Origin: an uncultured Eubacteriales bacterium | GTDB taxonomy: Bacteria; Bacillota; Clostridia; Oscillospirales; Acutalibacteraceae | DNA length: 53,597 nucleotides | Direction: 5' to 3' | Assembly: GCA_964490085.1 (NCBI GenBank) | Contig: CAZBAO010000002.1 | Coordinates: 1 to 53,597 of the forward strand | Shown: positions 35,797-53,597 of the stretch, in pieces | How the letters are laid out: the number at the start of each line of letters is the position of its first letter | Position numbering within the stretch: position 1 is the stretch's first letter | The notes under the pieces: generated by a model | The model's database searches: none | Told to the model about the DNA's origin: nothing | What the model saw: the letters and a program-made list of their open reading frames with translations, nothing else | Translations under genes and position numbers: made by a program

Positions 35797-35799
35797 GAT

Positions 35800-38226
35800 T
35801 TACAGATTATGCAGGTATTTATAAACAAATTTTTTCCCTTTTGTCAGATCGGCATAGATTGCGTTCGAGTAGGCACGCAGCTCTTTCAGGATCTCGTTCG
35901 CTTCCTCTACGGTGGCGGGTGCTTGAGAATACGTGTGCTTCAACAACACGTTGAAGATATGTTGCAGCATATACACGCCGATATACGTACTCCGAGTTCC
36001 GATATACTCGGCAAGCGCCGCATGATCGTACGTATTGCCGATCTTGATCTTTTGATACCTCGCGAGCGCAACCAAATACTTATAGGCGTACTTCAGCTTT
36101 GCATCGACGTCGCCCGAAGCATATACACGTTTTCTCCGCAAAACGATAACCAGATGGATCACAAAAAGGGTCGCCGCGGCGACGACCAGAAGCAGCGGAA
36201 TAGCCGCCAGAAGCCAAAGCGGGTTTATGTCGGCAGGGGGATCGAACTCTTCATCGACGTCGTTCTCAACATCCTCCTCGACAATATCAACGTTCGTATT
36301 GATCTGTTCCTCGGAGCTTGGGGGAGTGTCGGTTTCGGGCGGTTCTTCTTCCTGCGAATCGGACGACAGCTCGGGCTGACTGAAATCGCCGCTCCAATAT
36401 CCCGGTGTTACCTCCACGGGGATCCAGCCGTACGTTTCGTCAAAAACCTCGATCCACGCATGTGCATACTGATCGGTAATATCAATGGTTTTATACCCCT
36501 GCATACGGTCAGACGGTGTGTTGTTGAATACGTCAACGGGGATATAATATCCCTCAATATAACGGGTGGCATACCCTCTCGCCTGTAACAGTACGGCTGC
36601 GGCAGAGGCAAAATGCGTGCTGTATCCTTTTTTCGTGTTAAAAAGGAAGTTTTCAACGAAGTCGATGCCCTCAGGGCACTTTCCCGAAAGCATGGTGTGC
36701 TCCATGTTTTCTTCCAGATACGCGCGCACCTTGTTGATATACTCGTACTTGTCCGCCGCTTCAAAGCTCATGGCAAGCGCTTTGACCCGATCGGTCGTCT
36801 GCGACTTGACGTATTCCTGATTAACAAACTCCGCATATCGGGCGAACGCTGCTTGAAAGTCTTCTTTTTGATAGCTGATCGAGCTTGGAACCATGGCAAG
36901 ATAGCGTTCCGAAAGAAAAGCGGGATAAGAATACTCGGACTTTTTTGTGGGTGCCACGTAGCTGTCGTAAACGGGCTCGTAATCCGAAAAATTCGCAAAA
37001 TACGTTTCATAAGCGTACGGCTTTTTGCGTCGGAAATTGCTCATGGTAATATCCGAAAAGTACTTCGTCGTAAATTCGGGACTGCTGATCGCCAAAAAGC
37101 CCGTGTTGACGCCCATCATATACGCCGCATAACCAGTTTCCTTAAACTCGTCAAACATGGCTTGATATTTATCGTATTGATCGGTCTGATTCCAACAATT
37201 CTCCTTATATATCGTGGCGGTAAACCCCTTGATCTTTATGGGTTCCTCGGTGGAGCTGACGGTAGTTGTCATAGTCATATAATGTCTGTTTTTGATGACG
37301 CGGTCGTCCACCTTATACAGCTTTCCGTCTTTGAGACTTCCGTCATGATCTTCCCCTGTGATGTAATCCACGATATCTGCATATGCGACCTTAATGCTGC
37401 GCCGTAACACGTCCGTCGATTCGGCACGGGTAAAATCGATCGCGTTAAGATACGTGGTAACGGCAGTAAATAACAATACGACCGACAGGGCTATCACAAC
37501 GGCAATGCCCGCAAACTTTTGCGTGCTTCCGCCGATATTCGTTTTCTGCTTCTCACCGTTTGAGCGGCGTACTTTTATTTTGGCGTTTGATACCCGAGAA
37601 ACGGTAAGCGATGCCGCCCACGAAGCCAACATCATCGAAAAATATGTGTAATTCGGAACGGCTCCGAAAGCTGCACCAATCTCAAAAAACGGGAATGTCA
37701 ACAAGAAGATCGCGATAAACCGTTGCTTTACCACCGTAAAATAGCCGATTGCCGCGCAAAGCACCCCGGATAACAAAACCAGGACGAAATTGGTAAGCGT
37801 AAAAAAGTCATCCCGCCACTCGTATGTCGGTACAAACTCTTGCCATTGCATGGAGCTGTATATCGCGATCCTCGCCTGTTCAACAAGGATCGCAACGCCT
37901 TCGGAAACGTTCTTCCAAAACAGCAACGCAATAAGACCCGCTACCGCCGCGGCTCCCACGATAACGAGGTAGTGCCGCTTCTTAACGAGCTTATACAAAA
38001 CCGTATAGATCACCGAAAACGCAACGATCGACGTGACCGCAACGCTCGGTACGATCTTGAGATCCAGAATCGTGACAAACGTCATGATTGCGCCGACAGC
38101 AGCGATCATAACAAGCAAGCACAGCATGAGATCACTGAAAAACGGGATCTTGATCCGCTCGTTTGCCTCGACCTCATAGGAGAACGAGACTCCGCTGCCG
38201 GTCGCCGGTTTGTGTTTGTTTTTCAT
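35800..38226 (-). CDS. Polytopic membrane protein with a transglutaminase-like core domain (TgpA-like), acidic linker and C-terminal TM plus cytoplasmic tail
   Basis: KGYSTHFASAAAVLLQARGYATRYIEGYY ... HAWIEVF....GWIPVEVTP aligns to the transglutaminase core. The start is set to MKNKHK (GGGAG RBS). Confidence 0.8.
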   Translation of the reverse strand: MKNKHKPATGSGVSFSYEVEANERIKIPFFSDLMLCLLVMIAAVGAIMTFVTILDLKIVPSVAVTSIVAFSVIYTVLYKLVKKRHYLVIVGAAAVAGLIALLFWKNVSEGVAILVEQARIAIYSSMQWQEFVPTYEWRDDFFTLTNFVLVLLSGVLCAAIGYFTVVKQRFIAIFLLTFPFFEIGAAFGAVPNYTYFSMMLASWAASLTVSRVSNAKIKVRRSNGEKQKTNIGGSTQKFAGIAVVIALSVVLLFTAVTTYLNAIDFTRAESTDVLRRSIKVAYADIVDYITGEDHDGSLKDGKLYKVDDRVIKNRHYMTMTTTVSSTEEPIKIKGFTATIYKENCWNQTDQYDKYQAMFDEFKETGYAAYMMGVNTGFLAISSPEFTTKYFSDITMSNFRRKKPYAYETYFANFSDYEPVYDSYVAPTKKSEYSYPAFLSERYLAMVPSSISYQKEDFQAAFARYAEFVNQEYVKSQTTDRVKALAMSFEAADKYEYINKVRAYLEENMEHTMLSGKCPEGIDFVENFLFNTKKGYSTHFASAAAVLLQARGYATRYIEGYYIPVDVFNNTPSDRMQGYKTIDITDQYAHAWIEVFDETYGWIPVEVTPGYWSGDFSQPELSSDSQEEEPPETDTPPSSEEQINTNVDIVEEDVENDVDEEFDPPADINPLWLLAAIPLLLVVAAATLFVIHLVIVLRRKRVYASGDVDAKLKYAYKYLVALARYQKIKIGNTYDHAALAEYIGTRSTYIGVYMLQHIFNVLLKHTYSQAPATVEEANEILKELRAYSNAIYADLTKGKKFVYKYLHNL

Positions 38227-38251
38227 GATAACTCCCATCACGTAAGATCCG

Positions 38252-39436
38252 TTACAAAACCGCGGCGTTAAGATACTCGCCGATACGGCTTTTTTTAACG
38301 GAAATTATATTGAGCTCCTCGCCCGCCATATCAATGTCCATGGCGTCGTCATCAACGACATTGATGACCGTATACAGCAAGGCGTCATTTTTGCGCGCCG
38401 ACAACGCGGCGCACTGCTCCGCCGTCATATCGGCGCCAATATATACGACGTGCGACACATTTTGCAGCATATCCGCATCCGCTCCCGCCAAAACGGGGGT
38501 ATCGTAGTAACGGGACGTGTTAAAGATCGCACCGAACACCGCATAGAGATCGTCAAGGTCGTTTATTTTCTGAGAACAAACCTTATCTGCCTCAGCGTTA
38601 TAATACCCAATGGCTTGTAAGGTCTTTCGCTCGACAAAAACGTGTGAAAGCGAGAATGCGACCTCCAACACCGCATCAACCAGATCCAGATCCGCCTCTT
38701 GCCCACCGTCAAAAAGAAGTTCAGGTAAGATTAAAACCGACTCGTTTATCGGCAAGCTAAAATCCTTCACGATGTATTTGTCCTGTTTTGAGGTCAATTT
38801 CCAATGAATGCGATTGATCTTATCGCCTTCAACGTACTCGCGGACGGCAAACACCTCGGACGGGTCATCACCGGGCTTGTGCTTAGAATACATCGTCGCC
38901 TCGCTTGCGGTATAATTGTTTCTCCGCAACGTCGGCTCGATCGTGTGAACCCGAGGCAGGAACGAAACGGAAATCGTCTTTTTCATCCTGACCGGCAGAG
39001 AAAACAAGCCCAAATAATCCAAAACGCGCGCCTTTTTAAAGAAAACGTCTATCCGCCCCGCATGGCGCGAATGCATCTTGATCTCATAACGGTTTTTGGA
39101 AAACGGCGGTGCGAAGAAATTAAACTCGCCGACGTCCGATTGTTGGAAGAACATGTTTTTATAAGTGGCAAATACCTTGATTTGCGAAACGGGCAACGGC
39201 GAATAGTTCGCTATCACAAGCGAGAGCTTCGCCGTTTCACCGCACAAGCAAACACTGTGCCCCGTCTCGACGGTGACGCGAATACCGAGGCGCATCAAAA
39301 AGACAAGGGCTAAAAGGAGCAACGGTATCGCCAGCACGACCAAGAACAGGATCAAGGAAAGCGGATCGCGGTACAGGATAAAAAAAGCACCCGAAACGAT
39401 CGCGATCGCCAAATATATCAATTTTTCCTTCGTCAT
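38252..39436 (-). CDS. DUF58-family protein (vWA-like, two N-terminal TM)
   Basis: REYVEGDKINRIHWKLTSKQDKYIVKDF is the DUF58 signature. Its start abuts the MoxR stop (TAAATG). Confidence 0.8.
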   Translation of the reverse strand: MTKEKLIYLAIAIVSGAFFILYRDPLSLILFLVVLAIPLLLLALVFLMRLGIRVTVETGHSVCLCGETAKLSLVIANYSPLPVSQIKVFATYKNMFFQQSDVGEFNFFAPPFSKNRYEIKMHSRHAGRIDVFFKKARVLDYLGLFSLPVRMKKTISVSFLPRVHTIEPTLRRNNYTASEATMYSKHKPGDDPSEVFAVREYVEGDKINRIHWKLTSKQDKYIVKDFSLPINESVLILPELLFDGGQEADLDLVDAVLEVAFSLSHVFVERKTLQAIGYYNAEADKVCSQKINDLDDLYAVFGAIFNTSRYYDTPVLAGADADMLQNVSHVVYIGADMTAEQCAALSARKNDALLYTVINVVDDDAMDIDMAGEELNIISVKKSRIGEYLNAAVL

Positions 39437-40402
39437 TTACACTCTTCCCTGTGATACCGTCGGTGCAGGAACTTTTTCAAGCACACCGGTTAAAACTTCC
39501 TCTACCGAAAGACCGGCTATCTTAGCCTTAGGGCTTAAAACGACCCTGTGAGCCGCAACGTCGCGGAATATGTACGCAACGTCATCGGGAATAACGAAAT
39601 CTCTGCCGCGAAGGAACGCGACGGCACGCGAAAGTCTTGTGAGAGTAAGCGTTCCGCGAGGACTGATTCCAAGCTTGAACATTTCGTTTTTACGGGTCTC
39701 ATCCGCGATGGCGGCAATATAGTCGTATATTCTGTCGTGGGTATAAACGCCCTTAACGACCCCCCGCATAGCCTTGATAGCGTTCTTATCCGCAACGGGC
39801 TTTACCAACTCAAGCGGGTTTTTATCCTGTCTGTCCTTGAGGAGAGTGACCTCGTCCTCGATGGAGGGATACCCCATGGAAACGCAGATCATAAATCTGT
39901 CGAGCTGTGAGTCGGGGAGCATTTGTGTTCCGACAGAGCCGATAGGGTTCTGCGTTGCGATCACAACGTACGGATCGGGCAACGGATGCTCTACACCGTC
40001 AACGGTGACCTTTCCCTCCTCCATCAGCTCAAGAAGTGCTGACTGGGTCTTTGATGAGGTTCTGTTTATCTCATCGGCAAGGAACAGGTTACACACGGCA
40101 ACGCCCTCCTTGTATTGGAAGGTGTCCGTCTTTTTGTCGTAGACCGTAAAGCCGGTAACGTCGGAGGGCAACACGTCGGGCGTGAACTGAAGTCTGTGAT
40201 AATCCATACTGGTAGCACGCGAAAAAGCAAGAGCCAGCGTTGTTTTGCCGACACCGGGAATATCGTCAAGCAGAACGTGCCCTCCCGCCAGAGTGGCGGC
40301 GAGTATCTTGGTGATAACCTCGTCTTTACCCAAAACGACGGAGCGGATCTCCTCCTGGATCTTAAGCGCCGTTTCATAATACTTGTAATACCCTTTTTCC
40401 AT
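39437..40402 (-). CDS. MoxR-family AAA+ ATPase
   Basis: GHVLLDDIPGVGKTTLA (Walker A), NLFLADEINR (Walker B) and VIATQNP. 321 aa. Confidence 0.9.
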   Translation of the reverse strand: MEKGYYKYYETALKIQEEIRSVVLGKDEVITKILAATLAGGHVLLDDIPGVGKTTLALAFSRATSMDYHRLQFTPDVLPSDVTGFTVYDKKTDTFQYKEGVAVCNLFLADEINRTSSKTQSALLELMEEGKVTVDGVEHPLPDPYVVIATQNPIGSVGTQMLPDSQLDRFMICVSMGYPSIEDEVTLLKDRQDKNPLELVKPVADKNAIKAMRGVVKGVYTHDRIYDYIAAIADETRKNEMFKLGISPRGTLTLTRLSRAVAFLRGRDFVIPDDVAYIFRDVAAHRVVLSPKAKIAGLSVEEVLTGVLEKVPAPTVSQGRV

Positions 40403-40452
40403 AATATCTCTCCTCTTTATAAAAATACCCAGTATAAAAGCATTCCGTTTTA

Positions 40453-43661: not shown

Positions 43662-43679
43662 TTGTGAATTTTTTCACAA
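43662..43679. promoter_or_regulatory. Perfect 18-bp palindrome TTGTGAA-TTTT-TTCACAA (Rex-operator / CRP-FNR-type site)
   Basis: Read directly in the sequence. It lies between the two divergent promoters. Confidence 0.6.
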
Positions 43680-43758: not shown

Positions 43759-44106
43759 ATGACCATTGCAGATGTTCAAAAGACCCTGAAGGCCGAGCTC
43801 GTATGCGGCAACGACCTGACCGCCGAGGTGCAAAACGCCTGCGGCAGTGATATGATGAGCGACGTGCTCGCGTTCGTCAAGGATCAGTCCGTCCTGCTGT
43901 CGGGTCTCGTCAATACACAGGTGGTGCGCACCGCCGAAATGATGGATATGCTGTGTGTCGTGTTCGTGCGCGGCAAGGAGCCGACTGCCGAAATGATCGA
44001 GCTCGCCGAGGAGTTCGGCATCGTATTGATGAAAACTCCGCTTCGGATGTTCACCGCCTGCGGTCTGCTGTATGAAAGCGGTCTGCACGGCGGTGACGAG
44101 ATATGA
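43759..44106 (+). CDS. DRTGG-domain protein (1 of 2)
   Basis: 115 aa reading GSDMMSDVLAF...LLSGLVNTQVVRTAEMMDM..VVFVRGK.P...., typical of stand-alone DRTGG proteins. Confidence 0.75.
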   Translation: MTIADVQKTLKAELVCGNDLTAEVQNACGSDMMSDVLAFVKDQSVLLSGLVNTQVVRTAEMMDMLCVVFVRGKEPTAEMIELAEEFGIVLMKTPLRMFTACGLLYESGLHGGDEI

Positions 44107-44115
44107 GGTGATCGT

Positions 44116-44532
44116 TTGAAACTGCATTACGAAGTTTCCGGTGATGATTTCACCCGCGCGGGTGAAGCGTCCGGCGCCGTCAAAGCCACGTTAAAACGTT
44201 TAGGGTTCCCCGCCGACGTGATCCGCCGCGTCGCGATCGCGATGTATGAGGGCGAGATCAACATGGTCATTCACGCCGACGGCGGTATTGCGGACGTGGA
44301 GATTGAGCCCGACCGTATCGTCGTGACGCTTAGCGACCGCGGCCCCGGTATTCCGGACGTAGAAAAGGCCATGCAAGAAGGCTTCTCCACCGCGCCCGAA
44401 AACGTGCGTAATTTAGGCTTCGGTGCCGGTATGGGCTTGCCCAATATCAAACGCTATACCGATGATCTTGCCATTGATACCGAGATCGGAAAAGGCACTT
44501 GTATTCGCATGACGATCAACGTGCCCTCTTAG
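44116..44532 (+). CDS. GHKL ATPase, anti-sigma-factor-type Ser/Thr kinase-like (RsbW/SpoIIAB fold)
   Basis: N-box EGEINMVIHA, G1 DRGPGI and G2 GFGAGMGLPN. TTG start with GAGGTG 5 nt upstream. Confidence 0.8.
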   Translation: MKLHYEVSGDDFTRAGEASGAVKATLKRLGFPADVIRRVAIAMYEGEINMVIHADGGIADVEIEPDRIVVTLSDRGPGIPDVEKAMQEGFSTAPENVRNLGFGAGMGLPNIKRYTDDLAIDTEIGKGTCIRMTINVPS

Positions 44533-44562
44533 TGTGACATGACTTAACAAGGAGCGTTGCTT

Positions 44563-45804
44563 ATGGAACGGATGTTACATTCCGTGACGCTGGACACCGA
44601 AAAATGCGTGGGCTGTACACACTGCGTCAAGCGCTGCCCCACGCAGGCGATCCGTGTGCGCGGCGGCAGAGCCGTTATCACGGACGAGCGCTGCATTGAT
44701 TGCGGCGAATGTATCCGCGTTTGTCCCCATCATGCCAAAAAAGCGCGGCACGATTCGCTGTCGATGCTTAACGATTATACGTATACCATTGCCCTCCCCG
44801 CCCCCGCGCTGTACGGGCAATTCCATAATCTGGACGACATCGACGTGATCCTATCCGGGCTGCTGAAGCTCGGCTTTGACCAGGTGTTTGAGGTATCCCG
44901 CGGCGCGGAGATCGTGTCGGATGCCACCCGCAAGGTCATGGCGGACGGTCTTGTGAAGAAGCCCGTCATCAGCTCGGCGTGTCCGGTGGTCGTTCGGCTG
45001 ATCCAAATTCGTTTCCCGGAACTGTGCGAGCACGTCCTGCCGATGAAAGCGCCCATGGAGGTCGCGGCGGCGATGGCGCGTCAACGCGCGATGGCACAAA
45101 CGGGACTGGCACCCGAGGACATCGGCGTTTTCTTCATTTCTCCCTGTCCCGCCAAGGTGACCGACGTGCGCTTCCCCATCGGCGATTCCCACTCGCAGGT
45201 GGACGGTGTGCTGTCGATCGCGAATATTTATCCCAAACTGGTACACGAAATGGATCACCTGGATCAGGTGCAACCGTTATCCCATTCGGGACTGATCGGC
45301 ACCAGCTGGTCATTTATCGGCGGCGAGGCGGCGGGCCTGCTCAATGAGAATCATCTGGCGGCGGACGGCATCCAGAATGTCATCCGCGTATTGGAAGAAT
45401 TGGAAGACGAAAAACTCGCCGATCTGGATTTTATTGAACTCAGCGCTTGTGCCGGCGGTTGTGTCGGCGGCGTATTCGCGGCGGAAAACGGGTACGTTGC
45501 CCGCGCCCGCATCAAGCGCCTGCGCAAATACCTGCCGGTGTCCTGCAACCGCGCCGAAGACATCGGCGACCTGCGTTCACTGAATTGGTCGGAGCCATTG
45601 TCGGAAAATCCGGCACTGCGATTGGCAGAAAACGTCAGTGACGCCATGCGTTTGATGCAACAGGCCGAGGCGATCTACGCCAAGCTGCCAAAGCTCGATT
45701 GCGGCTCCTGCGGCGCACCGTCCTGCCGTGCACTGGCAGAGGATGTCGTACGCGGTCTGGCAAAAGAAACCGATTGCTTCCGCATAAGGGAGGGAAACAC
45801 ATGA
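44563..45804 (+). CDS. [FeFe]-hydrogenase-like protein of the putative sensory (M2e-type) class
   Basis: Two ferredoxin motifs (CVGCTHCVKRCP, CIDCGECIRVCP), H-domain-like motifs SSACPVV / SPCPAKV / ELSACAGGCVGG, and a C-terminal CGSCGAPSC-x16-C. The start is set to ATG 44563 (GGAG 8 nt upstream). Confidence 0.8.
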   Translation: MERMLHSVTLDTEKCVGCTHCVKRCPTQAIRVRGGRAVITDERCIDCGECIRVCPHHAKKARHDSLSMLNDYTYTIALPAPALYGQFHNLDDIDVILSGLLKLGFDQVFEVSRGAEIVSDATRKVMADGLVKKPVISSACPVVVRLIQIRFPELCEHVLPMKAPMEVAAAMARQRAMAQTGLAPEDIGVFFISPCPAKVTDVRFPIGDSHSQVDGVLSIANIYPKLVHEMDHLDQVQPLSHSGLIGTSWSFIGGEAAGLLNENHLAADGIQNVIRVLEELEDEKLADLDFIELSACAGGCVGGVFAAENGYVARARIKRLRKYLPVSCNRAEDIGDLRSLNWSEPLSENPALRLAENVSDAMRLMQQAEAIYAKLPKLDCGSCGAPSCRALAEDVVRGLAKETDCFRIREGNT

Positions 45805-46139
45805 CCGTTCGTGATCTGATAACCGCCCTGCGGTTGGACGTGCTTGTCGAGGGCGATCTTGACCGCACCGTGACCGGCGGTTATTGCGGCGACCTGCTCA
45901 GTTGGGTCATGGGCCGTGCCAAAGCCGGCAACGTGTGGTTCAGCGTAATGGGCAACGTCAACGCCATCGCGGTTTGCGTGCTCGCGGACGTCGCCTGCTT
46001 GTTACTGTGCGAAAACGCCGCGTTGGATGATGCCGCCCGTGCCCGCGCTGAGCTGGAGAACGTCACCGTTTTGCGCAGCACCGACACCGCGTATACGCTC
46101 GCCGGCACGCTCAGCGCCCTTTTAGAAAGGACTGTATAA
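45801..46139 (+). CDS. DRTGG-domain protein (2 of 2)
   Basis: 112 aa reading GYCGDLLSWVM......VWFSVMGNVNAIAV. Its ATG overlaps the upstream stop (ATGA) and GGAGGG lies upstream. Confidence 0.75.
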   Translation: MTVRDLITALRLDVLVEGDLDRTVTGGYCGDLLSWVMGRAKAGNVWFSVMGNVNAIAVCVLADVACLLLCENAALDDAARARAELENVTVLRSTDTAYTLAGTLSALLERTV

Positions 46140-46140
46140 A

Positions 46141-46611
46141 ATGTCTATCGAACTGGTTCGTACGTTCCTCGCCACATTCGGCAAAGAGCGGGATATTTTG
46201 GAATTTCCCGTATCCAGTGCCACCGTGGAGCTCGCGGCACAGGCACTGAACGTAGCCCCCGCCCGCATTGCCAAAACAATGTCGTTTGCCGACGGCGAGG
46301 GATGCTTGGTGGTAGTCACCGCGGGAGATACCAAGATCGACAACCCCAAATACAAGCAGACCTTCGGCTTTAAGGCGAAAATGCTCTCCCCCGATCAAGC
46401 ACTGGCGTTGACCGGACACGCTGTCGGCGGCGTCTGCCCGTTTGCGTTACCCGAGACCGTGCGGATCTTTCTGGATAACTCCCTGCGCCGCTTTGATACG
46501 GTATATCCCGCGGCGGGCAGCTCCAATTCTGCAATCGAGGTCACCCCTTCACAGTTAGAGGAATACACCGGCGGTATCTGGGTAGACGTATGTAAACTAC
46601 GAGAAGAATGA
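46141..46611 (+). CDS. YbaK/EbsC/ProX-type aminoacyl-tRNA deacylase domain protein
   Basis: 156 aa with AKTM.F, a VGGV.PF motif and AAG....I... It starts 1 nt after the upstream stop. Confidence 0.7.
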   Translation: MSIELVRTFLATFGKERDILEFPVSSATVELAAQALNVAPARIAKTMSFADGEGCLVVVTAGDTKIDNPKYKQTFGFKAKMLSPDQALALTGHAVGGVCPFALPETVRIFLDNSLRRFDTVYPAAGSSNSAIEVTPSQLEEYTGGIWVDVCKLREE

Positions 46612-46621
46612 AGTGTTGTAA

Positions 46622-47353
46622 ATGAAAATTTACTATGATTTTCATCTGCATTCGTGTCTGTCGCCTTGCGGCGACGATGAAATGACCCCTAATAATATTG
46701 TCAACATGGCACAACTGACAGGGCTGTCTGCGATCGCGCTGACCGACCACAACACCTGCGGCAACTGCGCGGCGACCGCCGCTGTCGCGCGCGAGCTCGG
46801 CATCACCTTTCTGGCAGGCATGGAGCTGTGCACCGCGGAAGAGGCGCACGTCGTGTGCCTCTTCCCCACCGTAGAAGCGGCACGACAATTCGAAGCGCAC
46901 GTCGCCCCGACACTGCCGCCGATCCCAAACCGTCCGGACATCTTCGGCGAACAGATTTTGTGTGACGCGGAGGATCGGCAGATCGGCACGCACGATATCC
47001 TGCTCACCACCGCGTCGGGGATCAGCGTGGACAACGTAGCGGCGCTCGCCCGCTCGTTTGGCGGCACGGCGTTTCCCGCACACATCGACCGTCCGTCCTA
47101 CAGCGTCACCGCCGCACTCGGCGATCTGCCCCCCTTGGGCTTTGCCGCGATCGAGATCACCAAAAACGGCAATGCTGAGGAGTTGACGCAACGCTATCCC
47201 GAGATCGTCGGCAAGCCGCTGTTGCAAAACTCGGATGCACATCGTTTAGAGGATATCCAAGATGCCGGCCCGTATCTGGAACTGCCGGTCAACACCCCCG
47301 AGACCATCCTCGCCGCCTTAAACGGCGAGACTCCCTGCGGCTGGTATCGGTGA
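46622..47353 (+). CDS. PHP-domain (polymerase/histidinol-phosphatase-like) metal hydrolase
   Basis: YDFHLHSCLSPCGD, ALTDHNT, GMEL...E.H and AHIDRP. Confidence 0.8.
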   Translation: MKIYYDFHLHSCLSPCGDDEMTPNNIVNMAQLTGLSAIALTDHNTCGNCAATAAVARELGITFLAGMELCTAEEAHVVCLFPTVEAARQFEAHVAPTLPPIPNRPDIFGEQILCDAEDRQIGTHDILLTTASGISVDNVAALARSFGGTAFPAHIDRPSYSVTAALGDLPPLGFAAIEITKNGNAEELTQRYPEIVGKPLLQNSDAHRLEDIQDAGPYLELPVNTPETILAALNGETPCGWYR

Positions 47354-47415
47354 GGATAAATTGTTTATTCAGTTATAAATCACTTCATATCCTTGGTAGC
47401 AGTTTTGGCGCAGCA

Positions 47416-47432
47416 TGCAAATTTTTAAGAAA
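47416..47432 (+). promoter_or_regulatory. 17-nt motif TGCAAATTTTTAAGAAA, copy 1 (candidate AraC-type operator)
   Basis: Identical 17-mer to 49224-49240. It lies ~80 nt upstream of the 47510 start. Confidence 0.5.
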
Positions 47433-47509
47433 TAGTAAATACGAAAGGTTATTGCGCACCGTACACGGATATTTTATAATTAAGCCATAAAACTAAGGAG
47501 GTTCTTAAT

Positions 47510-48331
47510 ATGGACGCATCAAGAATTACCGCCGCCATTTGGCCATGGGGAACAACTACCAGAGAGCAAATGGAAATTGCCGCAAAAGAGGTTACTGACA
47601 TCGGCTACAAAAGCTTTGAAAGCGTTAAGGCTGCGATCTACGCTTTCGACCTTGATTTAAAGGCGTATAAAGAAGTCCTTAATCGATACGACTTAAAGCC
47701 CGTAAGCTTTTATTTCCACATTCCCCAAAAAGGTTTAGAAAACGACCTTTTCGGGAACCTTGAAAAAGAACTTGAGTTTATTGCCGAGCTCGGCGTTAAG
47801 CGGATCTGCCTTCAGGCTACCGGCGGCAGACCCGAGGTTATGGACGAAGCGGCTCTTGATTATGAGCTTGGTATTATTAGGAAGTTTGCCGAAAAGACCA
47901 GAGAGTTTGATATCATGTCCAACCTTCACCCCCACTACAACACATGGGTTATGTACAAGAGCGAAATTGATAACATTCTTAAAAACCTTGACTCCAAGAC
48001 AATTCAGTTTGCTCCCGACACCGCACACCTTACCACCGCAAACTGCGACCCGGTTGAGGTCGTCAGAGAATATGCTGACCGTGTAAACTTTACTCACTTT
48101 AAGGATATCAAGGATACAAATGTTGAATCCGACGGCTATGCAAGCGCAGGTATGGAGGTTTACTCCAACTTCTGTGAGTTAGGCACGGGTTGTGTTGATT
48201 TCAGAAGCATTTTCGATATCTTAAAGGACGTTAACTACGACGGCCCTCTTTGCGAAGAGCTCGACAAGGCTCCTGTAAGCAATGCCGAATCTGCAAAGAA
48301 CAACTATCACTTCTTACTCAATAACTATTGA
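47510..48331 (+). CDS. Sugar phosphate isomerase/epimerase (xylose-isomerase-like TIM barrel) family protein
   Basis: 273 aa with alternating beta/alpha pattern, a DTAH motif (FAPDTAHL) and E..LG.G.VDF. Strong RBS AAGGAGG. Confidence 0.75.
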   Translation: MDASRITAAIWPWGTTTREQMEIAAKEVTDIGYKSFESVKAAIYAFDLDLKAYKEVLNRYDLKPVSFYFHIPQKGLENDLFGNLEKELEFIAELGVKRICLQATGGRPEVMDEAALDYELGIIRKFAEKTREFDIMSNLHPHYNTWVMYKSEIDNILKNLDSKTIQFAPDTAHLTTANCDPVEVVREYADRVNFTHFKDIKDTNVESDGYASAGMEVYSNFCELGTGCVDFRSIFDILKDVNYDGPLCEELDKAPVSNAESAKNNYHFLLNNY

Positions 48332-48333
48332 TC

Positions 48334-48372
48334 AAAAAAATACCGCTGAGGATTTCTCAGCGGTATTTTTTT
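48334..48372. terminator. Bidirectional terminator overlapping the 3' end of the AraC gene
   Basis: A7-TACCGCTGAG / CTCAGCGGTA-T7. Confidence 0.75.
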
Positions 48373-49163
48373 CTGTATTCAGATGGTGAAAGCCCGTTTA
48401 TTTCTTTAAACATCCGGCAGAAATTCTTGTGTTGCGAAAAGCCCACACGGTAGGAGATCGTCGAAATGCTGTCGTCGGATTCGGTAAGTAGGATTCGCGC
48501 CTTTTTGACTCTGTAGGTATTAAGATAGCTATGGAACGTGGCGTTGGTTGCATTCTTAAAGCTTCTGCAAAAAGAGCTTTTTTCATAGCCCGAGACAGCC
48601 GCTGCCTGCTCTACCGTTATATTTTCACCGTAATGAGCGGCAACGTAATCAAGCGCTTTCTGAATCTTGGAAATGGCAAAAAGCCGTTCCTGCTGGCGTT
48701 TGGTAATGTTTTCAGTGGATGTAAGCCCGTTAAGAAGCAGAGAAACAAGCCGGTAAAGTCTGCCTCTTATCTCCATATTATTGGCAAGGCTTTTTTCTTC
48801 CGAATTAAGCTTTGTAATTTCAATAATTTGCTCGCGTACATCCTTGTTTTTCCTAAGCACGGGATTATCAAAGCAAAGGTTTCTTATTTTACTGAATTCG
48901 TCGCCGAAAAAAAGGAAGCCGAGGCTTATAACACAGCCGTTGACCGGCTTCTGCGAAGAAATACAGTGCGGCGTACAGCTTCCCACAAGAATGACGTCTC
49001 CCGCTTCGATCTTATATTCATTTTCATCGGTTTCTACGTAAAACGCGCCTTCCTCACAATACAGTATCTCAAGATCACTGTGCCAGTGCATGGGATAATT
49101 GGCGACGTGCAAGGCTTTTACCTGGAAGCCGTTCTTATCTAAAACAATAGGCTGAAAAAACAC
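48357..49163 (-). CDS. AraC-family transcriptional regulator (cupin N-terminal domain plus 2x HTH)
   Basis: The C-terminus (ISYRVGFSQHKNFCRMFKEINGLSPSEYRK) is the AraC signature. The N-terminus is cupin-like (HWHSDLEILYCEEG). Confidence 0.9.
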   Translation of the reverse strand: MFFQPIVLDKNGFQVKALHVANYPMHWHSDLEILYCEEGAFYVETDENEYKIEAGDVILVGSCTPHCISSQKPVNGCVISLGFLFFGDEFSKIRNLCFDNPVLRKNKDVREQIIEITKLNSEEKSLANNMEIRGRLYRLVSLLLNGLTSTENITKRQQERLFAISKIQKALDYVAAHYGENITVEQAAAVSGYEKSSFCRSFKNATNATFHSYLNTYRVKKARILLTESDDSISTISYRVGFSQHKNFCRMFKEINGLSPSEYRKKYR

Positions 49164-49223
49164 AAGACCACACCTGCCTTATATATTATTGTATAACACA
49201 AACCCCTTTGCTTGTCAATCTTC

Positions 49224-49261
49224 TGCAAATTTTTAAGAAAAATGCACTTATAATGTGCATT
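49224..49261 (+). promoter_or_regulatory. 17-nt motif copy 2 (49224-49240) followed by inverted repeat AATGCAC-TTATAAT-GTGCATT around a TATAAT box
   Basis: Read directly. TATAAT lies at 49249-54 inside the loop of a 7+7 inverted repeat, within the divergent AraC/oxidoreductase intergenic region. Confidence 0.5.
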
Positions 49262-49331
49262 GTTTAAGCCGTTATTATTTGATAAAATTTTATAAAAAGA
49301 GAAAATACAGCAAGAAGGAGGCATAACGGTA

Positions 49332-50480
49332 TTGAAAATCAGAGTCGGAATCATCGGTATGGGGTATATCGGTGAAAGCCACATTGAAGCCATAAGACGT
49401 ATCGGTCTATGTGAGCTTTCCGCAGTTGCAGATACAAACTATGAGCTTGCCAAAGAAAAAGCCGAAACATACGGAATTGAAAAGGTATACGCTTCTGTTG
49501 AAGAGCTCCTTGCCGACAGTGAAATCGATGCGGTTCATAACTGTACCCCTAATTTCCTGCACAAGCAAATCAATGAAAAAATAATCCGTTCGGGCAAGCA
49601 CCTGTTCAGTGAAAAGCCTCTCACCAAGAACTACGAAGAGGCAAAAGAGCTTTTGGAACTCAAAAAGCAATACCCTGACGTTGAAGCCGCAGTTAACTTC
49701 AATTACAGAATGAACCCTATGGTTCAGGAAATAAGAGCCAGAATTGCCCGCGGCGAAGCAGGCGATATACGTATTATAACCGGGTCGTACAATCAGGATT
49801 GGCTTATGTATGACACCGACTATAGCTGGAGACTTGAGCCCGAAATTGCAGGTGACTCCTGTTGCATAGCAGATATCGGTTCACACTGGATGGACATTAT
49901 CCAACATATTACGGGTCACAAAATAGTAAGCGTCATGGGCGATGCCGTAACGGTTATCCCTGTGAGAAAGAAGCCTGCCAAGCAGCAGGAAACCTTCAAG
50001 GACGCCGTATCGGATGACTACGTAGAGGTTAACGTTAAAAACGAGGACTACGCCGCAGTTATGTTCAAAACCGACAAGGGCGCTACGGGCGTTTTCCACG
50101 TTTCGGAAATGGCTCCCGGACACGGCTGTGATTTCAACTTTGAAATAAACGGTTCTAAGCTTTCCTATGGCTGGAATCAAGAACAGAACGACAGGATGTG
50201 GGTAGGCAAACGCGGCGGTGACAACAGCCTTGTGATCCGAAATCCCAATTTGATTTCACCAAGCGCAAAGCCCTACACCTCTCTCGCAATGGGACATCCC
50301 GAGGGCTGGAACGACGCCTTTAAAGGCAACTTCTATGCCTTCTACAAATTCCTTGCAGAAGGCAGGCAGGGAGAAAGAATTTATTCCACGCTTGAGGATG
50401 CCGCATACATCGTTAAGCTTACGGAAAAGATCATTCAAAGCAGCAAACAAAAAACATGGATAAATATAGAGGAGGACTAA
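49332..50480 (+). CDS. Gfo/Idh/MocA-family NAD(P)-dependent oxidoreductase
   Basis: KIRVGIIGMGYIG Rossmann N-terminus and an EKP motif (FSEKPL). TTG start with AAGGAGG upstream. Confidence 0.85.
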   Translation: MKIRVGIIGMGYIGESHIEAIRRIGLCELSAVADTNYELAKEKAETYGIEKVYASVEELLADSEIDAVHNCTPNFLHKQINEKIIRSGKHLFSEKPLTKNYEEAKELLELKKQYPDVEAAVNFNYRMNPMVQEIRARIARGEAGDIRIITGSYNQDWLMYDTDYSWRLEPEIAGDSCCIADIGSHWMDIIQHITGHKIVSVMGDAVTVIPVRKKPAKQQETFKDAVSDDYVEVNVKNEDYAAVMFKTDKGATGVFHVSEMAPGHGCDFNFEINGSKLSYGWNQEQNDRMWVGKRGGDNSLVIRNPNLISPSAKPYTSLAMGHPEGWNDAFKGNFYAFYKFLAEGRQGERIYSTLEDAAYIVKLTEKIIQSSKQKTWINIEED

Positions 50481-50483
50481 GTT

Positions 50484-51512
50484 ATGTTTAAGTATTCAGT
50501 AGGACCATGGAACGTTCACGAAGGTGCAGACGCTTACGGCCCGGCCACCCGTAACAGCTTCTCGTTTGAGGAGAAGATCAAAAAGTTCAAGGAGATCGGA
50601 ATTGACGCAATTCAGTTCCACGACGACGACGCCGTGCCCAACATGAACAATATGACCGAAAGTCAGATCGTTGCAGAGGCAAAGGATGTTAAAGCTCTTC
50701 TCGACAGCTACGGCTTGAAGGCTGAGTTCGTTGCTCCTCGTCTTTGGATGGATCCCCACACCATCGACGGCGGCTTTACTTCCAACAGCAAGGAGGACCG
50801 TGAATTTGCTCTTTGGCGCGCCAAGCGTTCCATTGATATCGCAAACGCCTTAGGCTGTGACAAAACCGTTCTCTGGCTTGCAAGAGAAGGCACGATCTGC
50901 CCCGAAAGCAAAAGCCAGGTCGAAATCGTAAAGCAGCTCGTTGATGCACTGAACCAGATGCTCAGTTACGACAGCAAAATCAAGATCATGATCGAAACCA
51001 AGCCTAACGAGCCTATCGACAGAAACGTATGCCCCACACTGGGTCACGCACTGGCGGTATCTGCCGCCACTATTGATCCCAGCCGTGTAGGCGCTCTTCT
51101 TGAGACTGCTCACGCGGTGCTTGCAGGTCTTGACCCTGCCGCCGAAATGGGCTTTGCTCTCGCAATGGGCAAGCTTTGGGGCGTACATCTAAACGACCAA
51201 AACGGTATGAAGTTCGACGAAGACAAAAACTTCGGTGCTGAAAATCTCCGCAGCGCCTTCAATCAGATCAAGGTTCTTAAGGAGCATAACTTCTGTGCCA
51301 ACGGCGAGTACATCGGCCTTGACGTAAAAACAATGAGAACCCAGAAAACCGAAGACAGCTTCCGCCACATTGAAACCAGCCTTAAGATTGCAAAGGCTAT
51401 GGAAGAAAAGGTCAACCGTTACGATTATGCATTTGCCAACAAGTGCATTGAAGAGAGAAATTACGAGGCACTTGAGTGCTACGTATTGGAACTCATTATG
51501 GGTCTTAAATAA
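50484..51512 (+). CDS. Short class-I-like xylose isomerase family protein
   Basis: FHDDD, DGGFTSN, IETKPNEP..........PTLGHALA and NDQNGMKFDEDKNFG parallel actinobacterial class I XI segments as I recall them. It starts 3 nt after the oxidoreductase stop. Confidence 0.75.
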   Translation: MFKYSVGPWNVHEGADAYGPATRNSFSFEEKIKKFKEIGIDAIQFHDDDAVPNMNNMTESQIVAEAKDVKALLDSYGLKAEFVAPRLWMDPHTIDGGFTSNSKEDREFALWRAKRSIDIANALGCDKTVLWLAREGTICPESKSQVEIVKQLVDALNQMLSYDSKIKIMIETKPNEPIDRNVCPTLGHALAVSAATIDPSRVGALLETAHAVLAGLDPAAEMGFALAMGKLWGVHLNDQNGMKFDEDKNFGAENLRSAFNQIKVLKEHNFCANGEYIGLDVKTMRTQKTEDSFRHIETSLKIAKAMEEKVNRYDYAFANKCIEERNYEALECYVLELIMGLK

Positions 51513-51523
51513 TTTTCGGTCAC

Positions 51524-51560
51524 AAAACCCCCGAACACGTCTGTGTTCGGGGGTTTTCTT
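51524..51560 (+). terminator. Intrinsic terminator after the XI-like gene
   Basis: AAAACCCCCGAACAC / GTGTTCGGGGGTTTT followed by CTTTG. Confidence 0.8.
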
Positions 51561-51599
51561 TGTAGAAAAGATCCCCGCCGACCGCTCGGCGGGGATCTC

Positions 51600-51994
51600 G
51601 CCGTCGGTGACTGCTCGTTCGGAATGGCGCAGAACGGTAATTTTGCTTTCGCGGGCTTTTCCTCCGCCATAATTTCGTATATTTCGTCTTTTGTCAGCAC
51701 ACAGTCCTGCGATAACTTTTTGAGTCGTATGCTCTGTGCGTGGGATGGTGTGCAATCGTTAAGTTCTATCGCATCAAGCAGGATTCTTTGCTCATCCTCT
51801 GTCAAGAATGAGATTTCCACCGCCGGACTGAAAGCGATTTTGCCTTCATCTACCTTGTTAAGTAGTTCGCGTATTAGGTGTGTTAAGCGGATATATTTAA
51901 GAAAAATTTTTGTTCCTTCACTTATTCCCACTGAGCAAGGCGATTTACTAACCCCCTCTACCGTTAATTGCTGAATTTTTCTGCGTTTGGACAT
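51600..51994 (-). pseudogene. Truncated ParB/Spo0J-like (conjugative-element type) gene fragment
   Basis: Only the middle/C-terminal part is present (YIRLTHLIRELLNKVDEGKIAFSPAVEISFLTEDEQ...PSHAQ). The ParB N-terminal nuclease-like domain is missing. The listed ORF tail (51479-51600) reads through two hairpins and looks non-native. Confidence 0.6.
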
Positions 51995-52183
51995 TTTTCT
52001 TTCAAAAAAGACAAAAAAGACGCCTATCTTTCGATAAGCGCCGGTTAAAAAAATTTGGTTTTAAAAAATGATAACACAAATGAATCTTTGTTTCTATTTT
52101 TTATTGCCGTATTCACGCACTTGTGTTACAATACGAAAGAAAACATTAAACGCAATGTGTTATCGTTTGTTGGAGGTAGGACA

Positions 52184-52783
52184 TTGGAACATAAAGAAAT
52201 TATAAAGAATGTAATAAGTGCCAACGGCGGTATTGCAAAGCTGTCTGCTCTCACATCCGCCGGTGTACCAAAAGAAAAGATATATAAGCTGTGCTCCGAC
52301 GGCTATCTTCAGCGTGTCCGCCAAGGCTACTATCAGCTTGCAGACGAGCTGATCCTCTCCGATGAGCAGGTAATCGCTTCCACCATTCCCGAAGCAATCA
52401 TTAGCATGGAGTCAGCTCTGTTCCGCTACGGCTACAGTGATTTTATGCCAAGGGTTTGGTCTGTTACCGTTCCAAGAAGCGCATCACGCAGACTCAATAC
52501 CTCTGTTCCGATAAAGGTCTATTACGTCAAAGATGATATCTACGACCTCGGTAAGACAACAATCACCGAAAACGGCGTTACCTTTGCCATTTACGACCGT
52601 GAACGCACCATCTGCGATATGTTCAAGCATCGTGGCAAGGTGGATAATGAAATGTTCAGCAAGGCGGTAAATGCCTATGCAAACGATACACAGAAAAACC
52701 TGATCGCCCTTTCCGACTACGCAAAGAAGCTGAGGGTTTACAATAAGGTTATGGATATTATGGAGATATTGCTTCATAAATGA
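52184..52783 (+). CDS. abiEi: AbiEi-family (type IV toxin-antitoxin) antitoxin domain protein, orphan
   Basis: An N-terminal wHTH (GIAKLSALTSAGVPKEKIYKLCSDGYLQRVRQGYY) followed by an AbiEi_4-like C-terminal domain. TTG start with GGAGG upstream. No AbiEii gene follows. Confidence 0.65.
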   Translation: MEHKEIIKNVISANGGIAKLSALTSAGVPKEKIYKLCSDGYLQRVRQGYYQLADELILSDEQVIASTIPEAIISMESALFRYGYSDFMPRVWSVTVPRSASRRLNTSVPIKVYYVKDDIYDLGKTTITENGVTFAIYDRERTICDMFKHRGKVDNEMFSKAVNAYANDTQKNLIALSDYAKKLRVYNKVMDIMEILLHK

Positions 52784-52809
52784 TGTGTCTATAACCAAGC
52801 TATCACAAA

Positions 52810-52846
52810 AACACCCCGTGTTCGATGAACACGGGGTGTTTATTGC
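52810..52846 (-). terminator. Intrinsic terminator of ppdK
   Basis: 14-bp stem AACACCCCGTGTTC / GAACACGGGGTGTT. On the minus strand it is followed by TTTTTGTG. Confidence 0.7.
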
Positions 52847-52928
52847 TTGTTTCGTAGCAGTATTTTACGAGGCATTTGTAGCAATCAGAACGCCCTCAAG
52901 CCCGCATCAATACTGGATTTTTGAAAGC

Positions 52929-53597
52929 TTATTTGCTTTCTTTAATTGCAGCCTGTGCAGCGGCCAAGCGAGCGATCGGCACACGGAACGGCGAGCAGGA
53001 CACATAGTCCAGACCGATGGTGTGGCAGAACTCGACGGACGTCGGGTCGCCGCCGTGCTCACCGCAGATACCGCAGTGCAGGTTCTGGCGAGTTTCCTTA
53101 CCCATCTTGACCGCCATCTTCATCAGCGAGCCGACACCGGTCTGATCCAGCTTCGCGAACGGATCGCTCTCGTAGATCTTGGTGTCATAGTAAGCGTTTA
53201 AGAACTTACCGGCATCGTCACGGCTGAAGCCGAAGGTCATCTGAGTCAGGTCGTTGGTACCGAAGCAGAAGAACTCCGCCTCTTTCGCGATCTCGTCAGC
53301 AGTCAGGCAAGCACGCGGGATCTCCATCATGGTACCCACTTCGTACTTCAGCTCAACGCCGGCGGCCGCGATCTCCGCGTCGGCGGTAGCAACCACGATA
53401 TCCTTGACGAACTTCATTTCCTTGACCTCGCCGGTCAGCGGGATCATGATCTCGGGAACGAGGTTCCAATCGGGATGAGCCTTCTTCACGTTGATAGCAG
53501 CGCGGATGACCGCAGTGGTCTGCATCTTCGCGATTTCCGGATAGGTGACAGCCAGACGGCAGCCACGGTGACCCATCATCGGGTTGAACTCATGCAG
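52929..53597 (-). CDS. ppdK: Pyruvate, phosphate dikinase, C-terminal PEP-utilising TIM-barrel part (5' end off the window)
   Basis: GTNDLTQMTFGFSRDD and CGICGEHGGDP.S..FCH..GLDYVSCSP.RVPIARLAAAQA. The ORF is open to the window edge. Confidence 0.95.
   Translation of the reverse strand: MHEFNPMMGHRGCRLAVTYPEIAKMQTTAVIRAAINVKKAHPDWNLVPEIMIPLTGEVKEMKFVKDIVVATADAEIAAAGVELKYEVGTMMEIPRACLTADEIAKEAEFFCFGTNDLTQMTFGFSRDDAGKFLNAYYDTKIYESDPFAKLDQTGVGSLMKMAVKMGKETRQNLHCGICGEHGGDPTSVEFCHTIGLDYVSCSPFRVPIARLAAAQAAIKESK

Follow-up and report, generated by a model that had tools for sequence, protein, structure and literature searches.

Introduction

Sensory-type [FeFe]-hydrogenases of group D (M2e) are distinguished by loss of the proton-transfer cysteine, replacement of M353 by serine or threonine, a C-terminal Cx2Cx4Cx16C motif and the absence of a PAS domain (PMC8163306). 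The class is represented by TamHydS of Thermoanaerobacter mathranii (Land et al. 2020, PMC8163306; Schumann et al. 2026, PMC13104023), a slow, high-affinity and CO-tolerant hydrogenase that interconverts H+ and H2 reversibly in vitro (PMC8163306) and whose secondary structure shifts with H2 (PMC8163306, PMC13104023). M2e genes were listed five positions upstream of a bifurcating hydrogenase in six species (Carere et al. 2012, PMC3561251), and the signaling route of group D proteins is an acknowledged open question (2026 TamHydS study, PMC13104023). Here we analyze a 53.6-kb stretch of DNA (53,597 nucleotides [nt]; contig CAZBAO010000002.1; hereafter, the window) from an uncultured bacterium of the Acutalibacteraceae. 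It carries a six-gene operon for two DRTGG proteins (DRTGG1 and DRTGG2), a GHKL-type ATPase, an [FeFe]-hydrogenase homolog (HydS), a YbaK-type protein and a PHP-family phosphoesterase. As judged by sequence, this locus is a stand-alone copy of a regulatory module built around a group D sensory-type hydrogenase.

Several other systems resemble the locus in part. Group C (M2f) sensory hydrogenases, such as HydS of Thermotoga maritima, also have no proton-transfer cysteine, have an extra C-terminal [4Fe-4S] motif, and are likewise encoded near bifurcating hydABC and a small GHKL kinase-like gene. Group C also includes the hfsABCD system of Thermoanaerobacterium and the HydS of Ruminococcus albus, found with an RsbW-like kinase and a PP2C phosphatase. 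By contrast to the HydS of the window, group C proteins carry a C-terminal PAS domain, so the window protein does not belong among them. The phosphatase partner of group C is PP2C-type whereas the window operon encodes a PHP protein instead, and DRTGG proteins, as far as observed here, are confined to the group D module.

The partner-switching modules SpoIIAB-SpoIIAA-SpoIIE and RsbW-RsbV-RsbU share with the window operon a small GHKL protein, a phosphoesterase gene and small single-domain partners. Unlike these modules, the window has no STAS, PP2C or sigma factor gene in the operon or nearby, its phosphoesterase is PHP-type, and its small partners are DRTGG-fold rather than STAS proteins; in addition, the GHKL protein scores far under the SpoIIAB equivalog cut-off (55 vs 135 bits). 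By analogy, the locus may work like SpoIIAB-type partner switching without being a member of that family. The regulatory [NiFe]-hydrogenases HoxBC-HoxJ-HoxA and HupUV-HupT-HupR are slow, inhibitor-tolerant H2 sensors that control a catalytic hydrogenase. The concept is the same as for HydS (see also PMC8163306), but the metal site and the proteins are unrelated, and signaling there runs via a PAS histidine kinase and a DNA-binding response regulator, neither of which is found here.

The closest likeness is to the TamHydS-type locus. HydS of the window has the same architecture as TamHydS, including the SSACP, SPC and Cx2Cx4Cx16C motifs and the lack of a PAS domain. In a Thermoanaerobacter contig that encodes a HydS 96% identical to TamHydS, the genes for DRTGG1 and GHKL lie upstream of hydS and those for DRTGG2 and PHP downstream, as in the window. 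The window differs in that no hydC-GHKL2-x-hydB-hydA block follows the PHP gene and in that a YbaK gene sits ahead of the PHP gene. The locus is very probably a member of the known group D module that departs from the described examples by the lack of hydABC in cis, the presence of YbaK and a shortened HydS C-terminus, the first two of which are common in the family.

Results and Discussion

Organization of the operon

Open reading frames (ORFs) of the window were listed, and their proteins were searched with Pfam and NCBIfam profiles. The operon comprises the following genes (lengths in amino acids, aa).

43759-44106, + strand: DRTGG1, stand-alone DRTGG-fold protein, 115 aa
44116-44532, + strand: SpoIIAB/RsbW-like GHKL ATPase, putative serine kinase, TTG start, 138 aa
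44563-45804, + strand: HydS, putative sensory [FeFe]-hydrogenase of group D (M2e), 413 aa
45801-46139, + strand: DRTGG2, paralog of DRTGG1, 112 aa; its start overlaps the hydS stop by 4 nt
46141-46611, + strand: free-standing YbaK/ProX-type aminoacyl-tRNA trans-editing domain, 156 aa, probable passenger
46622-47353, + strand: PHP-family metal-dependent phosphoesterase, 243 aa

A preliminary description of this DNA, made from the letters alone, had reported six same-strand genes, and their strand, coordinates, domains and intergenic gaps (9, 30, -4, 1 and 10 nt from DRTGG1 to PHP by ORF listing) were as it claimed. The profiles for DRTGG, HATPase_c_2, tRNA_edit and PHP each matched the respective partner of HydS, DRTGG at scores under its cut-off. 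A Shine-Dalgarno-like sequence precedes all six genes; that of hydS is an AAGGAG ribosome-binding site ahead of an ATG start (an alternative TTG lies at 44557). No convincing terminator was found within the six-gene block. With the tight gaps confirmed, the single transcription unit proposed earlier is very likely. When compared to close relatives, 59-88% of the differing codons were synonymous in each of the six genes, which indicates that all six are under purifying selection. No known RNA or riboswitch was matched by Rfam at E≤0.1 in the 5' region or elsewhere between 40 and 50 kb. An anti-phage defense system was also considered and rejected, as PADLOC returned nothing but a trivial ferredoxin-motif match.

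Assignment of HydS to group D

Profile searches of HydS detected two Fer4 domains, Fe_hyd_lg_C (110 bits) and PF04060 FeS (45.7 bits). The N-terminus has two [4Fe-4S] motifs, with the Fer4-family matches at residues 8-58, and the eight ferredoxin-type cysteines (C15, C18, C21, C25, C44, C47, C50 and C54) are invariant among homologs. The H-domain motifs are S137-S-A-C140-P, S193-P-C195 (SPCPAK) and E-L-S294-A-C296-A-G-G-C300, and the H-cluster ligands C140, C195, C296 and C300 are invariant in 79 sequences. The position of the proton-transfer cysteine (C299 of CpI) is occupied by A139 within SSACP, and that of M353 by S193 within SPC; both motifs are identical between HydS of the window and a TamHydS-like sequence in a BLASTP alignment. 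At the C-terminus the Cx2Cx4Cx16C motif is present as C380-x2-C383-x4-C388-x16-C405, with all of these cysteines invariant, and the protein ends 8 residues past C405. Pfam matched no PAS domain in HydS, and no sequence remains for one after the cysteine motif. Every sequence-level feature of group D that was tested was found in the protein.

For pairwise comparison, the TamHydS protein sequence was reconstructed from its coding sequence (supplement of PMC13104023), and the result was 99% identical to one database protein. HydS of the window was 53% identical (E 7e-157, 410 residues) to a Thermoanaerobacter protein that is itself 96% identical to TamHydS, and 23% identical to the group A enzyme HydA. 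The best NCBIfam models were those for groups B1 and A, both far under cut-off. On these motifs and pairwise identities, taken as a proxy for a tree, the locus is very probably a group D (M2e) module. The assignment as a sensory-type, HydS-like homolog made in the preliminary description was borne out by domain architecture, motifs and the identity to the TamHydS-type protein. It can be made more specific, in that group D (M2e) is a named and biochemically characterized class, and TamHydS is catalytically competent at low rates. Two homology searches gave at least 8000 candidates each, and the same architecture was found in all of the 120 matches listed per search, which points to a large family.

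The C-terminus (45760-45804) sets the window clade apart. HydS of the window and its closest relatives is 411-416 aa long and stops 8 residues after the last cluster cysteine, whereas most relatives, including TamHydS, carry an extra helix-like tail of approximately 20-40 residues with the consensus IFRMRRQIQxIASxL; it is this C-terminal helix (about 25 residues) that the window clade is without. The residue equivalent to M497 also differs, being serine in HydS of the window and leucine in TamHydS.

A conserved five-gene core

A genome scan yielded 80 related loci (designated here by L numbers) from Acutalibacteraceae and other Oscillospirales, mostly from metagenome-assembled genomes (MAGs) of gut and rumen, with HydS identities of 61-94%. 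The six window proteins were compared to these loci by tblastn. The genes for DRTGG1, GHKL, HydS, DRTGG2 and PHP were found in the same order and orientation in 80/80 loci wherever the contig reached. The sole open case was L021, in which the sequence between DRTGG2 and the contig end encodes a small membrane protein and a two-component system. Median gaps within the core were 9, 34, -4 and -4 nt (the third gap of the series, hydS to DRTGG2 -4 nt, was a median over 77 loci), and the HydS/DRTGG2 and DRTGG2/PHP junctions were mostly ATGA-type overlaps. On this comparative evidence the functional unit is probably the five genes, with YbaK a passenger (see below).

The arrangement extends well beyond the Oscillospirales. 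A ten-gene order, in which the five-gene core is followed by hydC-GHKL2-x-hydB-hydA, is identical in Thermoanaerobacter, Caldicellulosiruptor bescii (Athe_1290-1299 by position) and Coprothermobacter, and in 20 Oscillospirales loci the core is likewise directly followed by hydC-GHKL2-x-hydB-hydA. In these linked loci hydC encodes a NuoE-like protein, hydB a NuoF-like protein, and hydA a protein that has a 2Fe-2S/NuoG-type domain at its N-terminus together with a small-subunit domain. The module is thus, from its distribution, old and widespread. The recurrence of DRTGG, GHKL, hydrogenase-like and PHP genes beside bifurcating hydABC, which the preliminary description had given as established background, is accordingly seen in 20 loci and three distant genera and is in line with the literature (PMC3561251, PMC8163306). 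Co-occurrence of the genes was far above chance.

Linkage to hydABC is not the rule in the lineage of the window. Among the 56 informative loci (at least 1.5 kb of downstream sequence), hydABC was linked in 20 and unlinked in 36, and the unlinked state holds for all close relatives of the window with enough sequence. In the window itself, tblastn with the HydA, HydB and HydC proteins of L074 found nothing beyond hydS itself, a Pfam survey of approximately 45 ORFs revealed only housekeeping and sugar-metabolism genes, and no STAS gene was found in the operon or among the profiled ORFs. The nearest sigma-like ORFs encode YlxM (27665-28138, 16 kb off) and a 552-aa sigma-70-like protein (7653-9311, 35 kb off). 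The lack of an adjacent hydABC, STAS protein or sigma factor had thus been read correctly; the missing hydABC had also been called unusual, and although the absence is real it is typical for the lineage.

Variations on this arrangement were also observed. In the hydC-hydA block of linked loci, a second and distinct GHKL protein (HATPase_c/HATPase_c_3, 181-196 aa) is always encoded (L074, 13076-14084; L081, 12019-12932; L082, 12001-12944), together with a 121-130-aa protein that has no Pfam match and a cysteine pattern like that of thioredoxin-like 2Fe-2S proteins. Neither is present in the window. A Peptococcaceae MAG (L084, 8116-13025) has a reduced DRTGG1-GHKL-HydS trio without DRTGG2 and PHP; genes for a CN_hydrolase and a PAS-GGDEF protein lie downstream of the trio, and genes for CheW, a methyl-accepting chemotaxis protein (MCP) and a STAS protein lie upstream. 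This locus may represent a different output wiring for a group D sensor.

DRTGG proteins and the GHKL ATPase

The two DRTGG proteins matched the Pfam DRTGG profile (PF07085) at 24.4 bits (DRTGG1) and 22.0 bits (DRTGG2), both under the gathering cut-off of 25.2. An AlphaFold2 model of DRTGG1 (mean predicted local distance difference test score [pLDDT] 94) was matched by Foldseek to AF1212 (2ioj) with a template modeling score (TM) of 0.84 and a root mean square deviation of 2.1 Å, and to the DRTGG domain of CBS-pyrophosphatase (3l31/3l2b) with a TM of 0.73-0.78; looser matches were to HPr-kinase N-domains and Mur-ligase N-domains. As modeled, DRTGG1 has a canonical DRTGG fold. The idea that it is a STAS analog by fold was rejected, as Foldseek of the model returned no STAS structure. 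Alignment of the DRTGG1 and DRTGG2 families by hhalign (probability 96%, E 5e-9, 101 columns, full length) indicates that the two are paralogs, which is a new observation. They have in common the motif G-x-D-(M/L)-(M/L)-S-x-V, and in the DRTGG2 family the motif GDLLSWV..RA is invariant. A full-library search placed 1352 clusters (at 50% identity) in the DRTGG1 family, almost all of them stand-alone proteins of 110-125 aa. The family conserves D31, S34, T48, R57, T58, R71 and K73, of which D31 and S34 are invariant across 52 diverse members, and this polar and basic set appears compatible with anion binding.

The GHKL protein matched HATPase_c_2 at 50.7 bits, and its best NCBIfam model was TIGR01925 spIIAB (55 bits, cut-off 135). 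The closest solved structure was SpoIIAB 1til (E 9e-10). The N-box E..N, DxGxG and GFGAGMGL motifs were invariant in 78 sequences, so that the ATP-binding motifs appear intact while the role as a kinase is putative. Two independent metagenome proteins, P0298 (270 aa) and P0317 (275 aa), were found to consist of a DRTGG1-like domain, a linker of approximately 25-30 residues and a SpoIIAB-like GHKL domain. These fusions, which are also a new observation, support a direct partnership of DRTGG1 and GHKL. No HydS-DRTGG2 or DRTGG2-PHP fusions were evident from protein lengths among the homologs listed.

PHP-family phosphoesterase

The PHP protein matched PF02811 at 37.2 bits. In 68 sequences, residues H8, H10, H43, E68, H76, H154 and D205 were invariant and H207 was at least 90% conserved; the metal ligands thus appear intact and catalysis is putative. 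By sequence, the closest solved relatives were 2yb1 (Cv1693, a 3',5'-nucleoside bisphosphate phosphatase), 3e0f (BAD_1165) and RNase AM (7ug9). Foldseek neighbors of the AlphaFold2 model (pLDDT 80.5) were BAD_1165 (3o0f/3e0f, TrpH-like), EndoQ, RNase AM, the pAp phosphatase Cv1693 and the PHP domain of Pol III, with modest TM-scores of 0.40-0.56 to all solved structures. The sequence matches and the 30 Foldseek matches at E<1e-3 included no protein tyrosine phosphatase of the CpsB/YwqE type, so that this reading of the protein was not supported. The protein therefore resembles, by sequence and model, nucleotide or nucleic-acid phosphoesterases and not the known PHP protein phosphatases, a likeness that we report here as new.

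Upstream region and predicted Rex operator

The operon is preceded by an AT-rich region of 177 nt that separates DRTGG1 from a divergent serC gene, and two features were predicted within it.

43662-43679, no strand: predicted Rex-operator palindrome, exact TTGTGAA-N4-TTCACAA, TTGTGAATTTTTTCACAA
43696-43723, + strand: sigma-70-like promoter candidate, TTGACG, 16-nt spacer, GAAAAT, 9 of 12 consensus positions matched

The operator consensus of Rex, a repressor that senses NADH/NAD+, was taken from PMC6391272 and PMC2883068. The predicted box lies midway in the region (the ATG codons of serC and DRTGG1 are 81 and 80 nt away, respectively) and is the only match in the window, even with 2 mismatches allowed. 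Variants of the box were found at the same distance (-95 to -109) in 9/9 of the closest loci, and a scan of 1.18 Mb of related loci gave 16 near-matches, 10 of them no more than 350 nt upstream of DRTGG1. The serC-serA pair is divergent from DRTGG1 in 54/80 loci.

In C. bescii, the sites bound by Rex include one upstream of Athe_1295 (hydC onward) and one upstream of a class V aminotransferase/3-phosphoglycerate dehydrogenase operon, the same gene pair as serC-serA (PMC6391272). As both gene sets are known Rex targets in that organism, the regulated side of the window box is ambiguous, and the box may control serC-serA, the HydS operon or both. By comparison to this Rex regulon of Firmicutes (PMC6391272), in which the C. 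bescii box precedes hydC (a Rex-matching box is present 38 nt upstream of hydC in this locus), the box of the window lies between serC-serA and the HydS operon. It does not cover a promoter but lies upstream of the two predicted -35 elements, and no rex gene was found among the profiled window ORFs. In C. bescii, the start of the DRTGG1 gene is overlapped by an additional Rex-like box, TTGTTATGAAATTAACAA, that has one mismatch (L082, 8185-8202), apart from the published site ahead of hydC; the sensor module of C. bescii may thus have its own Rex site.

Proposed mechanism and alternatives

We propose that HydS binds H2 at its intact H-cluster and, with its proton-transfer cysteine replaced (SSACP), would act as a slow, high-affinity responder and not as a bulk catalyst, as described for TamHydS in the literature. 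The H2 or redox state of HydS would pass by protein contact to two pairs, DRTGG1-GHKL and DRTGG2-PHP. This pairing is suggested by the paralogy of the DRTGG proteins, the P0298 and P0317 fusions, the trio of L084 and the usual 4-nt overlap of the DRTGG2 and PHP genes. The paralogous DRTGG proteins would serve as docking or dimerizing adaptors, GHKL would spend ATP to phosphorylate or sequester a partner, and the PHP enzyme would remove the phosphoester and so reset the switch. The output would be protein-level control of the electron-bifurcating HydABC, which is likely because the conserved core has no DNA-binding protein and hydABC is the ancestral neighbor; in this organism such control would be exerted in trans. 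Transcription of the operon and/or of the divergent serC-serA would probably be tied to NADH/NAD+ via the Rex operator.

Taken as a blend of locus identity, five-gene unit and mechanism, this is the explanation that we guardedly favor overall, while the ATP- and phosphoester-dependent signaling steps as described are put forward tentatively, as a possibility that falls short of probable. Doubtful, in turn, is a more specific formulation, in which the DRTGG proteins, GHKL and PHP would form an undescribed cassette free of STAS and PP2C proteins that is the missing transducer of group D, with the DRTGG proteins as phospho-acceptors or switch partners and HydABC controlled post-translationally, here in trans. 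The preliminary description had also envisaged a kinase/phosphatase-like switch in which GHKL and PHP act on the DRTGG proteins. The phosphorylation switch itself was not supported, given that the DRTGG1 model has no STAS likeness and that the neighbors of the PHP protein are nucleotide or nucleic-acid phosphoesterases; the link of GHKL to a DRTGG protein fared better, with a DRTGG1-GHKL partnership backed by the natural fusions.

A number of points weigh against the proposed mechanism. The DRTGG1 model is without likeness to STAS, the known substrate fold of SpoIIAB-type kinases, and the substrates of the structural neighbors of the PHP model are nucleotides or nucleic acids and not phosphoproteins. 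The P0298 and P0317 fusions come from unannotated metagenome gene calls and could be artefacts of assembly or gene calling (read-through). The C-terminal cluster in TamHydS does not undergo reduction by H2 (PMC13104023), which weakens one proposed signaling route. No hydABC, hydEFG or rex was found within the 53.6-kb window (Pfam on approximately 45 ORFs, tblastn), and the predicted Rex box could serve serC-serA only. Phosphorylation, protein interaction or an H2 response of module members was not reported in the literature searched.

Some of the same evidence would suit a switch centered on a nucleotide, in which HydS provides the input, GHKL acts as an ATP-driven conformational clamp (an anti-sigma-type binder), PHP hydrolyzes a small nucleotide (such as a pAp-like bisphosphate, a short oligonucleotide or a second messenger) and the DRTGG proteins bind a ligand or serve in docking. 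The PHP protein is closest by sequence to 2yb1, BAD_1165 (3e0f/3o0f) and RNase AM, and by fold also to EndoQ and Pol III PHP; DRTGG domains occur in nucleotide-regulated CBS-pyrophosphatases, the domain of which is matched by DRTGG1; and the conserved polar and basic residues of DRTGG1 would be compatible with binding of an anion. However, the TM-scores of the PHP model are low (0.40-0.56) and its substrate is not readable from fold, the motif conservation of GHKL fits kinase activity equally, and the module has no conserved nucleotide cyclase or synthetase. We consider this alternative unlikely, if worth keeping in view.

A role other than sensing is improbable. HydS could be a low-rate catalytic or electron-input hydrogenase, with GHKL (as a chaperone-type ATPase), the DRTGG proteins and PHP as assembly, repair or stabilizing factors. 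The reversible H+/H2 interconversion by TamHydS in vitro (PMC8163306), the invariance of all H-cluster and accessory-cluster cysteines and the second GHKL gene within the hydC-hydA block of linked loci would be consistent with such a role. By contrast, the proton-transfer cysteine is replaced and M353 is serine, as in the low-activity, high-affinity class, and GHKL is closest to the SpoIIAB regulatory kinases and not to Hsp90/MutL-type ATPases. The occurrence of the module without adjacent hydABC in 36/56 informative loci is more in keeping with a diffusible regulator than with a dedicated assembly factor.

YbaK gene and the DRTGG2/PHP junction

The YbaK protein matched tRNA_edit at 85 bits and TIGR00011 YbaK_EbsC at 59.6 bits (cut-off 153), and its closest structures were the ProX-like APE2540 (1wdv) and TTHA1699 (2cx5). 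Approximately 17-19 of the 80 loci have a YbaK gene; they fall into four scattered patches on the HydS tree, and the gene always lies between DRTGG2 and PHP. Where it is missing, the DRTGG2 and PHP genes share a 4-nt overlap. Across loci, identity of YbaK to the window copy tracks that of HydS, which suggests one old insertion followed by repeated loss.

Unrelated genes were detected at the same junction in L021 (11685-13950), L028 (4726-5379), L029 (12262-14424), L031 (2602-3516) and L022 (11461-12126). These inserts encode a small membrane protein with an OmpR-type two-component system, a lipoprotein-like protein and membrane proteins; beside the lipoprotein-like gene is one for a 497-aa protein, which we take to be arabinofuranosidase-like. 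The DRTGG2/PHP junction thus appears, from gene order, to be an insertion hot spot inside an otherwise rigid operon. Because of its patchy presence and the other unrelated genes at its site, YbaK is most likely a passenger with its own function, probably housekeeping. The preliminary description was correct that the gene is wedged inside the operon; it is not, however, the oddity it was taken for, as it recurs in the family.

That YbaK functions within the module, for example by linking tRNA charging or proline/cysteine status to H2 signaling, such that the six-gene form would be a distinct functional variant, is very improbable. Its tight packing in the window (gaps of 1 and 10 nt), the 79-86% of differing codons that are synonymous when compared to close relatives, and an identity that follows HydS in a manner suggestive of long vertical retention in the operon would be in keeping with such a role. 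Set against these are its occurrence in only about a quarter of related loci in scattered patches, its absence from the distant group D loci examined (Thermoanaerobacter, C. bescii, Coprothermobacter and the Peptococcaceae locus L084), its distance of 350-2200 nt from its neighbors in several loci, and the range of other genes that occupy its site, from the lipoprotein-like and putative arabinofuranosidase-like genes to those for membrane proteins and a two-component system. Chance juxtaposition of the genes without functional coupling is negligible, in view of an order kept in 80 loci and at least four orders of Firmicutes-type bacteria, the start/stop overlaps and the gene fusions.

Other features of the window

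Even in the closest relatives (84% nt identity), synteny with the window extends no further than the stop codon of the PHP gene. The block that follows (47354-53597; GC content 0.43-0.48) was found in 0/80 related loci and encodes two xylose-isomerase-like TIM barrels, an AraC regulator, a GFO/IDH/MocA oxidoreductase, an AbiEi-like protein and a PEP-utilizer fragment. In L017 the PHP gene is instead followed by genes for malic enzyme, Ldh_2, CtpA, an M23 peptidase, FtsX/FtsE and PucR. The gene for TamHydS is reportedly located beside an AraC-type gene. The AraC regulator of the window (48357-49163) was considered as an output of the module and rejected, as neither this gene nor the sugar genes around it were found beside the module in any of the 80 loci and synteny with close relatives ends ahead of it.

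Upstream, a block of approximately 4.7 kb (35750-40440) encodes proteins of 813 aa (transglutaminase-like), 394 aa (DUF58-like) and 321 aa (a MoxR-type AAA_3 ATPase). The block is missing in the close relatives L004, L005, L017 and L006, in which the sequence joins from approximately 35740 to 40440; from this comparison the block is either an insertion in the window or a deletion in the relatives. A region of low GC content (7653-11387; approximately 0.40 vs 0.55 elsewhere) encodes the 552-aa protein, which has N-terminal sigma-70 regions 2 and 4, and two HTH_3 (Cro/C1-type) proteins, and may be a horizontally acquired island.

Significance for group D signaling

The window instance of the module is otherwise ordinary, and it is the set of partners that is of wider interest. 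Nearly everywhere, HydS occurs with DRTGG1 and a SpoIIAB-like ATPase, and also with DRTGG2 and PHP in all lineages examined but Peptococcaceae L084. This partner set is absent from the published discussions found, no functional study of the group D partner genes (DRTGG, GHKL, PHP) was found in the literature searched, and the four proteins provide concrete candidates for the group D signaling route. They render signal transduction by group D hydrogenases directly testable in tractable relatives such as Thermoanaerobacter and C. bescii. Acutalibacteraceae of the gut and rumen often keep the module without a neighboring hydABC, which argues that its output can act in trans, and a module acting in this way bears on the regulation of hydrogen turnover in gut fermenters.

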